Assembly (NCBI RefSeq): GCF_003334785.1
Contig: NZ_QOWV01000012.1
Direction: 5' to 3' (one strand)
DNA length: 64,000 nt
Source: Escherichia coli
GTDB taxonomy: Bacteria > Pseudomonadota > Gammaproteobacteria > Enterobacterales > Enterobacteriaceae
The first letter of the stretch is position 1. Each line of letters starts with the position of its first letter. Positions 7,472-10,653 of this stretch are shown here, in pieces. The notes under the pieces were generated by a model, which saw only the letters and a program-made list of their open reading frames with translations, made no database searches and was not told where the DNA came from. The position numbers were made by a program, and so were the translations under genes.

Positions 7472-7669
7472 ATGAAATCATTAACCACGGAAACCGCACT
7501 GGATATTCTGATTGCGTGGCTGCAGGACAATATCGACTGCGAATCGGGAATTATCTTTGACAACAATGAGGATAAAACGGATTCAGCAGCACTGTTGCCC
7601 TGTATCGAACAGGCCAGAGAGGATATCCGTACCCTGCGCCAACTGCAGCTTCAGCACCAGAACCGGTGA
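7472..7669 (+). CDS. small hypothetical prophage protein (65 aa)
   Basis: ORF following yeeW-like gene; internal Met chosen; no motif recognised. Confidence 0.3.
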   Translation: MKSLTTETALDILIAWLQDNIDCESGIIFDNNEDKTDSAALLPCIEQAREDIRTLRQLQLQHQNR

Positions 7670-8386
7670 GTCTTACTCACCAGACTTCATTCCACTGACG
7701 CCAGCCTGAACAGGGCTGGCATTTTCATTTATCTGCAAAAAGGAATATCGATTATGTCTGATATCACAGCCTACCGTCCGGAAGTGGTCAACGAGAATAC
7801 GGACGTTATCTGCTCAACCAGCATCCGCCGCATTCTGGCTGTACGAAAGAGTTCACTGCTGCAAATCGACACAATTATCCGGCATCAAGTGAGCGATATC
7901 AGTTAACAGATATAGATGGAGAAGATGCTTTTATCCGGATTGGTTCTATCGCGATGGTGCGAGTACTACTTGATGCAATGAAGCCTGTCGAGGAAGATGA
8001 CGAGTAACAGAGCTCGGTATCTCAATCAGGAGCTGATTGTCCTGGTTCGATGCCGAAAACCAGTGATTTTTCGTGTTGGTATCTGTGTTGGTATAAGATG
8101 ATATTGTTTATTATTAACAATTTTAAATCATGAGGTTAAGTCACATGTTTGAGTCCGGCCTTCGCACCTTCGCACCTTCGCACCATCGGAACATCAATAG
8201 ACATCAACGGACGTTTTTTTATGACTGAAATCCGCGCCACACAAGGCTTTTCGCTATTTTTCGCTCAACCTAAGTCAACCTACATCAACTTACTGATGTG
8301 GATACAGCTACAGCTGCGGCTATACCCCGATTCGATAATGTTTGTACCCACACAAAACCCTTGAAAGGCTACAAGGCTGAAATTGT

Positions 8387-8605
8387 CTAAACCATAGAGA
8401 TGATTTTTATGATCCAGTCTTTCTCTTGTTGAGATAGTTCCAGTTTGCTCACTCGTGTTAAGAAGGTATTGATCACCTGAACATCCGAATTGGTGAGCCT
8501 ATTTAATAGAGCGGGTGGTATACCTTTACTAACAATCGCTTTGCGGTGACTTTCGTAGTTTTTATTACTCATTGTTGATCCTAAAAAATCATTGTATGGC
8601 GGCAT
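8387..8605 (-). CDS. hypothetical protein (72 aa); possibly C-terminal part of a frameshifted gene
   Basis: ORF in track directly downstream of the 8629..8871 ORF on the same strand, different frame. Confidence 0.3.
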   Translation of the reverse strand: MPPYNDFLGSTMSNKNYESHRKAIVSKGIPPALLNRLTNSDVQVINTFLTRVSKLELSQQEKDWIIKIISMV

Positions 8606-8628
8606 TGATCGTTTCCAGCAACCTTTAC

Positions 8629-8871
8629 TTACTCACTTCGAACTGCATCCTCGTAGACTGTTCCACTACAATAATCGAAAAGGCGCGGATGTCCATTCAG
8701 GTATCCCGCTAATACGTATAGCAATAACAATGGCTTATGCGGCGCGCGCTGTTCACCCTTGTGCCAGATTTTTATATTGGCAATTGCCTGCTGTAGCGAT
8801 TTACTGGAAGCTATTGATATCCCTAGCAGTGAAATAATTGCGATCATGCTCGCAAATTTTCTGCTGTTCAA
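8629..8871 (-). CDS. hypothetical protein (80 aa) with RAPHKPLLLLYVLAGYLNGHPRLFDY motif; possibly N-terminal part of a frameshifted gene
   Basis: ORF in track, divergent from the HNH gene; followed 24 bp downstream by a second ORF in another frame. Confidence 0.3.
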   Translation of the reverse strand: MNSRKFASMIAIISLLGISIASSKSLQQAIANIKIWHKGEQRAPHKPLLLLYVLAGYLNGHPRLFDYCSGTVYEDAVRSE

Positions 8872-8950
8872 GCCTGCAAGTGAAGATATATTACCTTGAT
8901 CTCATTTGTTTTTTTGCTGCCTGTTCTGAGAACGTATAAGGACATTCTCC

Positions 8951-9601
8951 ATGAATAAACTCCCTGATCATCTTCCGCGGCGGTATATCATCGAAGCTAT
9001 CCATTTATGGGATGCGGGAGAAACTCATCAGTTCCAGCCTGCGCGGTTGTATGAGATTGAATATCATGGCCGACGTTACCCCTCGAAGGCGATTGCTGGC
9101 ATCGCAGCGACATTGATGACGGGGACGCAATTTACCCCTGCGGATTTCACCGGCGGAATAAAATCTAAATGTGTCAAGCTACTCATAGAGCAGGGATTTC
9201 ATATTCATCTGGATAAAGCCGCTGCGGCTCCCATAGCCGACGTTCTGTTCCCGGATGAGTTGCCGTCGCAGGAGACATACCTTGAAGGTGCGGCGATAAA
9301 GGTGACAGTAAACCGCTATGAACGCGATAAAAAGGCCCGAGATAAAGCGGTCGAACATCATGGATGCCAGTGCAACGTATGCGGTGTTGATCTGGTGAAG
9401 ATCTATGGTGATATCGCTGAAGGCTTTATCCATGTGCATCACCTGGTGCCGCTGTCAGCCATTAAAGAGGATTACCAGCTGGATCCAGTTAATGATTTGC
9501 TGCCTGTGTACCCTAATTGCCATGCGATGTTGCACCGACGCAAACCACCGTTTACGCCGGAGCAGTTAAAAGCGCTGATGGATGCGAATAAATCAAATTA
9601 A
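8951..9601 (+). CDS. HNH endonuclease with an extra N-terminal domain (type IV restriction-like)
   Basis: C-terminal HHGCQCNVCG...FIHVHHLVPLS...NDLLPVYPNCHAMLHRR is a canonical HNH (C-x2-C, HH, N, C-x2-H) motif; about 120 aa of unrelated N-terminal sequence; AAGGA Shine-Dalgarno upstream of ATG. Confidence 0.7.
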   Translation: MNKLPDHLPRRYIIEAIHLWDAGETHQFQPARLYEIEYHGRRYPSKAIAGIAATLMTGTQFTPADFTGGIKSKCVKLLIEQGFHIHLDKAAAAPIADVLFPDELPSQETYLEGAAIKVTVNRYERDKKARDKAVEHHGCQCNVCGVDLVKIYGDIAEGFIHVHHLVPLSAIKEDYQLDPVNDLLPVYPNCHAMLHRRKPPFTPEQLKALMDANKSN

Positions 9602-9608
9602 TGAACGC

Positions 9609-10589
9609 TCACCTTTCGCGCCAAAACTGCAAAATTGCTTCTACAAACTTGTCAGAAATAATCCCCCGACGGGCTGCCGTGCTGAAATGACTGCTTCGCA
9701 GTGCCGTCGTCCAGTTCTCCGGTGACCGGTACGCTGAACCGTAATATCCCGTGCTTAAATCGTCCGGGTCTTCATCAGGCGCGTTCGTCAGTCCTCTTTC
9801 ACCTTGTTGCTGGAAGTCGACGAAAATAATATTGGCTAAAACATTATTTTGATAATTGCCATAAATAACTTCATACGCATGAGGGAAATTTTCTTTCCAG
9901 TACCAGGTGGTATCGCCGCAAAACCACGGTGCGTCAGTAATATTATTAAGCTGAGAATGGTATTGTTTTAGATCCCTACGAAAGGCTTCAACCATATGAT
10001 TAAAGTGTTGAGGGTGTGACGCGTAGTCACTGGTCATTAAGTCAAATTCGCCTTGCATCCAGCATACGCCGAGGAATTTGTTATGCGGATTTTTTGCCAG
10101 TGCGGCTCGCGTTCTGCTGACTAAATCCTGGTATAGCGGAGTATCCGTTCCCCAACGACAAGCATCATGGCTGGCTCCGTGCCGTTCTGAATATGTCCCT
10201 TCGCTGCCCGCGGTAAAAGCCGATCCGCCACGGCAACACGGAACGATGAGAACCCCTGCATTATCAGGAATAAAGGGCAGTAATTTCCGTGCTATATGCA
10301 GTGCCTGGCCAACGGTGCCGTACTGTGTTTGATGATTCGTTGCCAGAGGATGGTGATAACCCTGCATATCCTGAACATCGTGTGGGCAGTGAGTCAGTGG
10401 AATCATGTCGTTAAAGTGACATGGCGGGCCTCCGGGATGCGTATGCGCAAATCTCGCTAATTGTTTGATTCTGGGATGAGGCGCATCTTCCCTGTCCGGT
10501 AATGGCAGTCCTTCGCCATACGCCATGGCATTAGACTGACCAGCAATGGTAAGAATATAGTAATAATCGGGCGATATTATTGCGTTCAT
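9609..10589 (-). CDS. nanS: 9-O-acetyl-N-acetylneuraminate esterase NanS
   Basis: MNAIISPDYYYILTIAGQSNAMAYGEG... matches NanS (YjhS); start at the internal Met giving 326 aa; synteny with nanM and nanC. Confidence 0.85.
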   Translation of the reverse strand: MNAIISPDYYYILTIAGQSNAMAYGEGLPLPDREDAPHPRIKQLARFAHTHPGGPPCHFNDMIPLTHCPHDVQDMQGYHHPLATNHQTQYGTVGQALHIARKLLPFIPDNAGVLIVPCCRGGSAFTAGSEGTYSERHGASHDACRWGTDTPLYQDLVSRTRAALAKNPHNKFLGVCWMQGEFDLMTSDYASHPQHFNHMVEAFRRDLKQYHSQLNNITDAPWFCGDTTWYWKENFPHAYEVIYGNYQNNVLANIIFVDFQQQGERGLTNAPDEDPDDLSTGYYGSAYRSPENWTTALRSSHFSTAARRGIISDKFVEAILQFWRER

Positions 10590-10653
10590 ATAAATTTCGC
10601 GTAATTGAAATGACAAATTGATAGCAGGGCCCCTTTACCGGGGCCCTGAAGCG

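Follow-up and report, generated by a model that had tools for sequence, protein, structure and literature searches.

Two short open reading frames (ORFs) lie head to tail on the minus strand of a 64,000-nucleotide stretch of Escherichia coli DNA (contig NZ_QOWV01000012.1, assembly GCF_003334785.1; here, the window), and a gene for an HNH endonuclease is divergent from them. ORF1 (80 aa, 8629..8871) starts at a TTG, ORF2 (72 aa, 8387..8605) starts at an ATG, and the two are in different frames (266 mod 3 = 2). The ORF listing reproduced the coordinates and layout reported by an earlier reading of the sequence alone, and the peptide RAPHKPLLLLYVLAGYLNGHPRLFDY quoted from ORF1 was found in its translation. 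The positions were exact, but the gaps are each one nucleotide shorter than noted: 23 nt (8606..8628) rather than 24 between the two ORFs, and 79 nt rather than 80 between ORF1 and the start of the HNH gene. ORFs of this size are commonplace, as 39 ORFs of at least 40 aa were listed within 6 kb, and both ORF boundaries are mechanical artefacts. The locus is bounded on one side by the end of a CP4-like island (cbeA/cbtA, DUF957, and a DUF4942 fragment) and on the other by nanS-nanM-nanC-fimB. Two genes other than the HNH gene contribute to the ORFs besides the remains of an endonuclease, and we call them geneA and geneB (Table 1).

Table 1. Features assigned between positions 8159 and 9601 of the window
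Feature	Coordinates	Strand	Basis
Island-end or att-like segment	8159..8372	plus	likeness to tRNA-Leu 3' end and integrase-upstream region
Three tandem CCTTCGCA repeats	8159..8190		repeat search
geneB, 61 aa	8387..8572	minus	homologues; AGGA ribosome-binding site
geneA 3' remnant, the final ~28 codons, in-frame fusion with the stub	8569..8670	minus	DNA and protein alignment to geneA
Spurious 11-codon extension of ORF2, MPPYNDFLGST	8573..8605	minus	overlaps the geneA remnant in another frame
Endonuclease pseudogene stub, codons 1-48	8671..8814	minus	NF045808 match; DNA identity to NCTC86
Native endonuclease start codon, ATG to ATA	8812..8814	minus	comparison of stub-carrying loci
Spurious N-terminal extension of ORF1	8815..8871	minus	57 nt of the endonuclease 5' leader, chance in-frame TTG
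Shared intergenic region, 136 bp	8815..8950		same spacing where both genes are intact
Inverted repeat TTGCGAGCATGATCGCAA	8838..8855		hairpin scan
12-bp direct repeat TTTGCTGCCTGT, copy 1	8913..8924	plus	repeat search
12-bp direct repeat TTTGCTGCCTGT, copy 2	9496..9507		repeat search
HNH endonuclease, intact, 216 aa	8951..9601	plus	structure-profile and PADLOC matches

ORF1 is a chimera in which a 57-nt leader and endonuclease codons 1-48 are followed, across an in-frame join at 8670|8671, by a scrap of geneA. Residues 25-68 matched positions 2-45 of the 284 positions of NF045808, the NCBIfam model for "phosphorothioated DNA-binding restriction endonuclease" (E 1.7e-16), with a score of 60.2 bits against the curated cut-off of 180 bits for whole-protein membership. 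Moreover, a profile that we assembled from 137 full-length family members (136 representatives from 50% clustering plus the protein of strain NCTC86) matched ORF1 over profile positions 3-48 at E 3e-17. Pfam searches of ORF1 and of ORF2 returned nothing even at E <= 10. Descent of ORF1 from the NF045808 family is indicated by its orthologous position beside nanS/nanM/nanC and by DNA nearly identical to the intact NCTC86 gene: by BLAST, 8671..8924 matches that gene at its 5' end and in its upstream region with 97.6% identity, and the identity ends abruptly at 8671. The endonuclease homologues all begin with MASSKSLQQ, which corresponds to window position 8814. Thus, the native start codon is at 8812..8814, and the sequence upstream of it is leader that ORF1 reads by chance. 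Intact alleles likewise start at the equivalent of 8814, 136 nt from the ATG of the HNH gene. Position 8812 is an A in the window and in strains B7A, CFSAN061772, and ST361, and it is a G, which restores ATG, in seven other stub-carrying loci.

What remains of the endonuclease is a pseudogene. The sulfur-binding domain of such enzymes recognizes sulfur through HR/HK and YP motifs (PMC7461809), and the stub retains the HK motif (APHKP; conserved as APHKPLLLL). The second motif, which reads MPFW in the intact E. coli allele and YPFW in ScoMcrA, is gone along with residues 49-141 of the domain of ~140 aa, and the 137-member profile detected the HNH catalytic domain in no frame of 8100..8670. Because the loss of 242 codons has taken away the sulfur-binding pocket and all of the HNH domain, the stub is predicted to be incapable of binding or cutting phosphorothioate DNA. 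PGAP/RefSeq already carries 8665..8814 as a pseudogene "missing C-terminus." The fused frame is damaged in two further places besides the start codon change from ATG to ATA. A TAA at 8629..8631, where homologues have CAA, is common to all E. coli alleles sampled, and a TAG at 8581..8583 is particular to the sub-lineage of the window (GAG in 7 of the 11 loci compared).

The intact counterpart of the stub occupies the same position in NCTC86 and other strains and encodes a protein of 290 aa and 33.2 kDa. Residues 4-141 matched the sulfur-binding domain of ScoMcrA (5zmo, E 7e-8), and the C-terminal part matched the HNH domain of TagI. The intact minus-strand gene is therefore predicted to encode a phosphorothioate-dependent restriction endonuclease of the EcoWI/SprMcrA kind, in which a sulfur-binding domain is joined to an HNH domain (SBD-HNH). 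We predict the biochemical activity of the intact enzymes from family membership and from published work on EcoWI (PMC7461809). EcoWI cuts DNA modified at GpsAAC/GpsTTC, completely restricts plasmids modified by the dnd system of B7A, and requires the N-terminal part of its sulfur-binding domain for phosphorothioate dependence (PMC7461809; PMC9521924). Downstream of the intact endonuclease in NCTC86 is a 100-aa hypothetical gene, for which PADLOC gave no match. A relationship of ORF2 to that gene was considered and rejected, as the comparison gave no match in the right frame.

ORF2 contains a real gene, geneB, whose true start is the ATG at 8572 and not the ATG at 8605. The start is placed at 8572 because E. 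coli GF8 has a stop within the 33-nt extension and because the homologues all start at the equivalent of 8572; the extension is absent from all of them, and PGAP calls the 61-aa form. The AGGA lies 6 nt upstream of the geneB ATG. The product (WP_000066585.1) is basic, with a pI of 9.9, and it matched the family phrog_25874 over its full length (positions 1-61 of 61, E 3.7e-47). ORF2 had no NCBIfam match, and no function or fold match was found for geneB, PADLOC included. An AlphaFold2 model made from the single sequence contains four helices with a pLDDT of 86, and a search of AFDB50 with that model returned one significant match, a 61-aa protein with 72% identity. An initial protein search with ORF2 listed only near-identical E. 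coli copies, which gave it the look of an orphan. By tblastn against plasmids and phages, ORF2 returned 100% copies or noise only, and the one plasmid copy that was inspected lies between two IS1 elements.

How widely geneB is conserved became apparent in a scan of one genome per species, in which seven loci of other species matched geneB with 72-100% identity. Homologues are found in Citrobacter sp. NCU1 (two copies), Enterobacter sp. JUb54, Phytobacter massiliensis, Serratia sp. DD3, and an assembly labelled Chryseobacterium, as well as in Klebsiella aerogenes. The homologues are stand-alone proteins of 60-65 aa, and the six coding sequences aligned encode 60-64 aa and are 72-80% identical over the first 58 residues. 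Compared in pairs, they give a dN/dS of 0.04-0.14 at saturated synonymous sites, and geneB is under purifying selection across genera. Within E. coli, geneB has six variable sites, four of which are probably synonymous when codons are counted by hand (two of those four were confirmed). The reading frame is open in all 11 E. coli loci aligned, and the flanks have gathered nonsense changes and indels. The gene is annotated as WP_000066585.1 in some RefSeq records and is left unannotated by PGAP in most chromosomes. Expression of geneB is presumed, and the orphaned promoter of the endonuclease may drive it.

geneA is the customary partner of geneB. In four loci, geneB is preceded by a geneA of 64-74 aa with an ATGA stop/start overlap, as found by alignment of upstream regions, and the overlapping pair is present in Citrobacter (two copies), Enterobacter, the assembly labelled Chryseobacterium, and Klebsiella aerogenes. 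geneA encodes a signal peptide and two cysteines (the copy at Citrobacter locus L022 reads MKRLLVLTLALLPALANATQITLILSDEIETSDGKICLYENAVRSEQVKVAASAQCRHTMTFED) and is a widespread "hypothetical protein" of Enterobacteriaceae; the complete Klebsiella version matched phrog_4641. Upstream of geneA is a tyrosine recombinase of ~190-205 aa in Citrobacter, Klebsiella aerogenes, and E. coli AR_0128 and a serine DNA invertase in another set of genomes. Elsewhere, then, geneB usually follows geneA and often stands behind a small recombinase.

The window has only the end of geneA. At both the DNA and the protein level, CSGTVYEDAVRSE-stop-VKVAGNDQCRHTMIF-stop, which covers the end of ORF1 and 16 codons beyond it, aligned to the C-terminal half of the Citrobacter and Enterobacter geneA, C--LYENAVRSEQVKVAASAQCRHTMTFED, and the scrap supplies the tail of ORF1, CSGTVYEDAVRSE, plus the nonsense codon that ends it. 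A complete geneA ORF (64-69 aa, signal peptide, two cysteines) is absent from the window, where ~28 codons with two in-frame stops are left. Strain GF8 retains the ancestral ATGA overlap of geneA and geneB. A difference of three codons at the junction, "SGT," is without counterpart in the geneA homologues sampled. The Citrobacter cassette matched 980 E. coli genomes; among the matches listed, those that include geneB all begin at the same position in geneA, and the 5' half of geneA was absent from beside geneB in the 25 matches sampled. We infer the direction and mechanism of the join (deletion or insertion plus deletion) indirectly, because no genome was found with the presumed parent arrangement, in which a complete geneA-geneB pair would come after an SBD-HNH gene.

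The left flank of geneB is a boundary of its own. Over 8175..8372, the window shares 79% identity with the 3' end of tRNA-Leu and the integrase-upstream region of strain 12A, and in strain CUVET24-RF2 an integrase gene comes next after the att-like segment. The junction at 8376|8377 is recurrent, with differing island DNA to the left of 8377 in different strains (loci L007, L018, and L019). A weak terminator-like hairpin follows geneB on the variable side of that boundary, and a search of 7500..9800 against Rfam gave no RNA family. The possibility that 8377..8664 is a remnant of an integrase was rejected, as tblastn with the integrase of strain 12A gave nothing significant.

The HNH gene in the window is intact. 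Residues 24-86 of its product matched residues 29-92 of 5zmm, the "head" domain of ScoMcrA, at E about 1e-3, and residues 123-198 matched the HNH domain of E. coli McrA (6ghc). The PADLOC models for type IV modification-dependent restriction enzymes gave the same head and McrA HNH matches, and the Pfam HNH match was weak. A promoter scan gave nothing above shuffled expectation. In NCTC86-type genomes, 583 bp of the HNH gene are missing exactly between the two copies of TTTGCTGCCTGT, and recombination between the copies explains the deletion.

How often each part of the locus is retained was counted in 5,426 complete E. coli genomes, with "full-length" meaning at least 80% BLAST coverage rather than a verified open reading frame. 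By that measure the endonuclease is full-length in 1,707 genomes and the HNH gene in 1,239. Both are full-length and adjacent in 326, counted as at least 80% of a two-gene locus that was reconstructed by joining the intact endonuclease of NCTC86 to the intact HNH gene of the window. The segment of stub plus geneB is present in 971 genomes (~18%), every copy being at least 95% identical. NCTC86 and the window had seemed to indicate that the two nuclease genes strictly exclude each other, but this was rejected, as 326 genomes carry both; in strains EA2 and FDAARGOS_144, for example, both genes are annotated intact and adjacent, 136 nt apart, with no geneB match. Under independence about 390 genomes would be expected to carry both, and we conclude that the endonuclease and HNH genes are gained and lost roughly independently, which argues against an obligate partnership.

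Why two small ORFs should lie so close together had been tentatively explained by the sequence-only reading as one gene of ~150 aa, split in two by a frameshift or by a homopolymer error near 8605-8630. The ORFs share a strand and stand head to tail in different frames with 23 nt between them, a sulfur-binding domain alone is ~140-150 aa, and by eye the LTNSDVQVINTFL of ORF2 is faintly like the LVTGNKKLINTLA of that domain. When ORF2 was considered as a diverged C-terminal half of the domain on account of this "INT" motif, however, it scored -2.2 bits against the 137-member profile, no other frame of 8100..8670 matched, and tblastn of the intact endonuclease against ORF2 gave E = 69. Moreover, nucleotide homology to the intact gene stops sharply at 8671, and the homologues of ORF2 are preceded by geneA, not by a sulfur-binding domain. 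Comparison of the locus among related genomes found the intact gene to be the 290-aa endonuclease; the break is the fusion at 8670|8671, not a frameshift. Nor is the break an error of assembly or of a homopolymer: many independent complete genomes, B7A included, are 100% identical to the window over the surrounding 2 kb, and the same sequence recurs in hundreds of them. Of the proposed disruption, what survives is that ORF1 is a piece of a broken, divergent neighbour of the HNH gene. Database searches with the two peptides led from ORF1 to the N terminus of NF045808 and from ORF2 to a small-protein family of its own, and independent, unrelated genes were the outcome named beforehand as counting against a single gene. 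We conclude that ORF1 and ORF2 are not halves of one gene, and we leave the one-gene explanation almost no credence.

The same reading had alternatively suggested that the small ORFs could be functional partners of the HNH nuclease, for instance in an immunity, antitoxin, or regulatory role. Their divergent layout, the shared 136-bp intergenic region with its palindrome, and the intactness and conservation of geneB are in keeping with partnership, as is the probability that genomes with a full HNH gene and without a full SBD-HNH gene mostly carry the stub allele. ORF1, however, is a fragment that lacks a start codon here, the HNH gene of EA2 and FDAARGOS_144 adjoins an intact endonuclease instead of geneB, and the two nucleases coexist in the 326 genomes counted above. 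Conversely, strains such as O103:H2 129 and KSC1031 have the stub together with geneB but a mere fragment of the HNH gene, and in other genera the neighbours of geneB include recombinases, Hcp, and IS630 instead of this HNH gene. geneB and the HNH gene are thus not obligate companions, PADLOC has no match for geneB, and the near independence of endonuclease and HNH gene is not what an immunity or regulatory partner would lead one to expect. We regard partnership as very improbable. Whether geneB is itself alive is a separate matter. It could be a decaying passenger that looks conserved since the E. coli allele is young: every E. coli copy is at least 95% identical, PGAP usually leaves the gene uncalled, its operon partner geneA is destroyed, and neither function nor fold has been matched. 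But length and sequence are kept across genera at the low dN/dS and synonymous saturation given above, the frame stays open in 11 of 11 E. coli loci while the flanks deteriorate, a ribosome-binding site is present, and the single-sequence model is confident at a pLDDT of 86. A nonfunctional geneB is unlikely.

We consider it highly probable that the locus is scarred by gene loss and has a single live gene as a passenger, ORF1 being a dead chimeric stub and ORF2 being geneB. The homologies, breakpoints, population frequencies, and selection on geneB were observed directly, and from them we infer the following order of events. The ancestor would have carried two divergent modification-dependent nuclease genes beside nanS, the 290-aa SBD-HNH gene on the minus strand and the 216-aa "head"-HNH gene on the plus strand. 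A single illegitimate join at 8670|8671 would then have put codon 48 of the SBD-HNH gene directly before codon 36 or so of geneA, presumably the first gene of a prophage-type pair encoding a putatively secreted, two-cysteine protein of 64 aa and then the helical, 61-aa protein of geneB. That join would have removed the 242 endonuclease codons, and with them the pocket that binds sulfur and all of the HNH domain. Later decay may have introduced the TAA at 8629..8631 and then, in a sub-lineage, the TAG at 8581..8583 and the loss of the start codon. The ORFs now seen would be what resulted: ORF1 as leader, stub, and geneA scrap, and ORF2 as geneB with 11 spurious codons, geneB having kept its own ribosome-binding site.

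A more eventful history would credit geneB with a purpose. geneB, its partner geneA, and a small recombinase of the tyrosine or serine type might form a functional, uncharacterised module of prophage type whose arrival knocked out the endonuclease, and geneB might be kept in ~18% of E. coli as useful by itself, for instance in regulation as a small DNA-binding protein, as an accessory to a recombinase, or as an antidefence factor. Loss of the endonuclease might in turn let strains like B7A carry a GpsAAC/GpsTTC dnd system. We think this history quite unlikely. B7A, the classic dnd-positive strain, does carry the stub allele, and the allele fits it, as an intact EcoWI-type enzyme completely restricts plasmids bearing the B7A modification (PMC7461809). 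The stub of B7A is consistent with incompatibility of the enzyme and its phosphorothioate substrate, but it does not count as evidence of selection, given that ~69% of E. coli genomes are without a full-length endonuclease gene anyway.

The scar with its live geneB is, in its core, a matter of ordinary locus decay, and that core was known already, as the stub stands annotated in RefSeq. New here are an exact dissection of the chimera, a corrected start for geneB, and the recognition of geneB as a conserved small gene normally accompanied by geneA and a small recombinase. For annotation, ORF1 should not be called, being a pseudogene stub plus a scrap of a second gene, and ORF2 should be replaced by the 61-aa gene that starts at 8572. 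The site beside nanS is a hotspot at which two modification-dependent nucleases have been lost independently, and the deletions responsible have junctions that can be identified. The geneA-geneB pair, which is conserved, recombinase linked, and uncharacterised, is of wider interest. Neither phrog_25874 (geneB) nor phrog_4641 (geneA) has an assigned function, and the window departs from the usual pair in that geneA is only a 3' scrap and the preceding small recombinase is absent.

Among characterized enzymes, the closest relatives of the stub are those of the EcoWI/SprMcrA type (NF045808; 5zmo, 7cc9), and ORF1 residues 23-68 correspond to the N-terminal ~46 residues of that family. EcoWI is reported to be 33.4 kDa (PMC7461809) and the intact E. 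coli allele is 33.2 kDa, a likeness of size and family. The stub in the window, in contrast, keeps 48 of 290 codons and has a mutated start; it is a pseudogene, not an enzyme. ScoMcrA, the type IV enzyme of Streptomyces coelicolor (5zmm), combines head, SBD, SRA, and HNH domains, and the E. coli gene pair carries three of these four domain types. Unlike in ScoMcrA, the E. coli domains are split between a plus-strand gene (head and HNH) and a minus-strand gene (SBD and HNH), each with its own HNH domain and neither with an SRA domain, and the two genes are lost independently across strains. Finally, E. coli K-12 has at the same chromosomal position a locus that reads yjhR', endonuclease fragment, ythB, and nanS, and it likewise retains only a fragment of the SBD-HNH gene. 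The K-12 locus differs in that its endonuclease fragment is longer, is frameshifted, and is without geneB, and in that its HNH gene is nearly all lost.

The chromosomal site next to nanS is a defense-gene hotspot. In genomes that encode the intact 290-aa SBD-HNH phosphorothioate-dependent restriction endonuclease, of which the window retains only codons 1 to 48 (the stub), the neighboring genes encode a 1,126-aa DEAD/DEAH helicase, a DNA methyltransferase, and a 100-aa hypothetical protein (loci L009 30..3410 and L003 1..1610). In K-12, the counterpart of this intact helicase gene is the pseudogene yjhR. Strain EC974 instead has a type II Zorya system adjoining the endonuclease. Judged by its open 335-aa reading frame (9609..10616, minus strand), nanS itself looks intact in the window, whereas in B7A, a strain with the stub allele, and in several other strains, the RefSeq annotation at the corresponding position is limited to a 345-nt sialate O-acetylesterase pseudogene marked "incomplete." The discrepancy between the open frame and the pseudogene call may be an annotation inconsistency.

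To the left of the 61-aa prophage-type gene (geneB), 8175..8372 shares 79% identity with the final bases of a tRNA-Leu gene together with the DNA that precedes an integrase, and tandem repeats lie at its left end (see table). Together, 8159..8372 looks like stacked att remnants of successive island integrations. The window itself contains no tRNA gene. The 64-aa signal-peptide gene (geneA), reduced in the window to a 3' scrap, is preceded in five comparison loci by a small site-specific recombinase, which is either a tyrosine recombinase (about 190 to 205 aa) or a 203-aa serine DNA invertase. Because either recombinase chemistry may precede geneA, and because the tyrosine recombinases are only about 25% identical between loci, the arrangement suggests a conserved small-gene cargo that exchanges its recombinases. 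Moreover, geneB is found on plasmids. On pPSS-10_1 (locus L007 4074..6271), a block corresponding to window 8377..8943, which comprises geneB, the stub, and some of the intergenic sequence, is flanked by two copies of IS1, and 100% identical copies of geneB occur on 24 to 27 other E. coli plasmids. The plasmid block looks like chromosomal DNA passively captured by a composite IS1 element.

Features of the locus and of comparison loci
Feature	Position	Remark
Tandem copies of CCTTCGCA	8159..8190	three copies
Perfect palindrome TTGCGAGCATGATCGCAA	8838..8855	6-bp arms; endonuclease leader, in the intergenic region common with the HNH gene
Direct repeat TTTGCTGCCTGT	8913..8924 and 9496..9507	12 bp; two copies, 583 bp apart
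Recombinase-geneA	L028 2199..3198
Recombinase-geneA	L032 2387..3395
Recombinase-geneA	L022 1745..2738
Recombinase-geneA	L023 5203..6177
Recombinase-geneA	L027 3433..4201

The palindrome TTGCGAGCATGATCGCAA could serve as an operator or form a hairpin in RNA. The exact interval between the copies of TTTGCTGCCTGT is deleted in NCTC86-type genomes, leaving the divergent HNH gene without its first 545 nt. K-12 encodes a small protein, YthB, with the sequence MNKLPAHLSRQNCKIASTNLSEIIPRRAAVLK (locus L004 3206..3304). YthB begins with the first five codons of the HNH gene (MNKLP; window 8951..8975), and its remainder is a 29-aa open reading frame (MNAHLSRQNCK...) that, in the window (9601..9690), overlaps the stop codon of that gene. 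Thus, YthB looks like a deletion chimera of the two, in which case K-12 would have lost nearly all of the HNH gene but retained its translation start.
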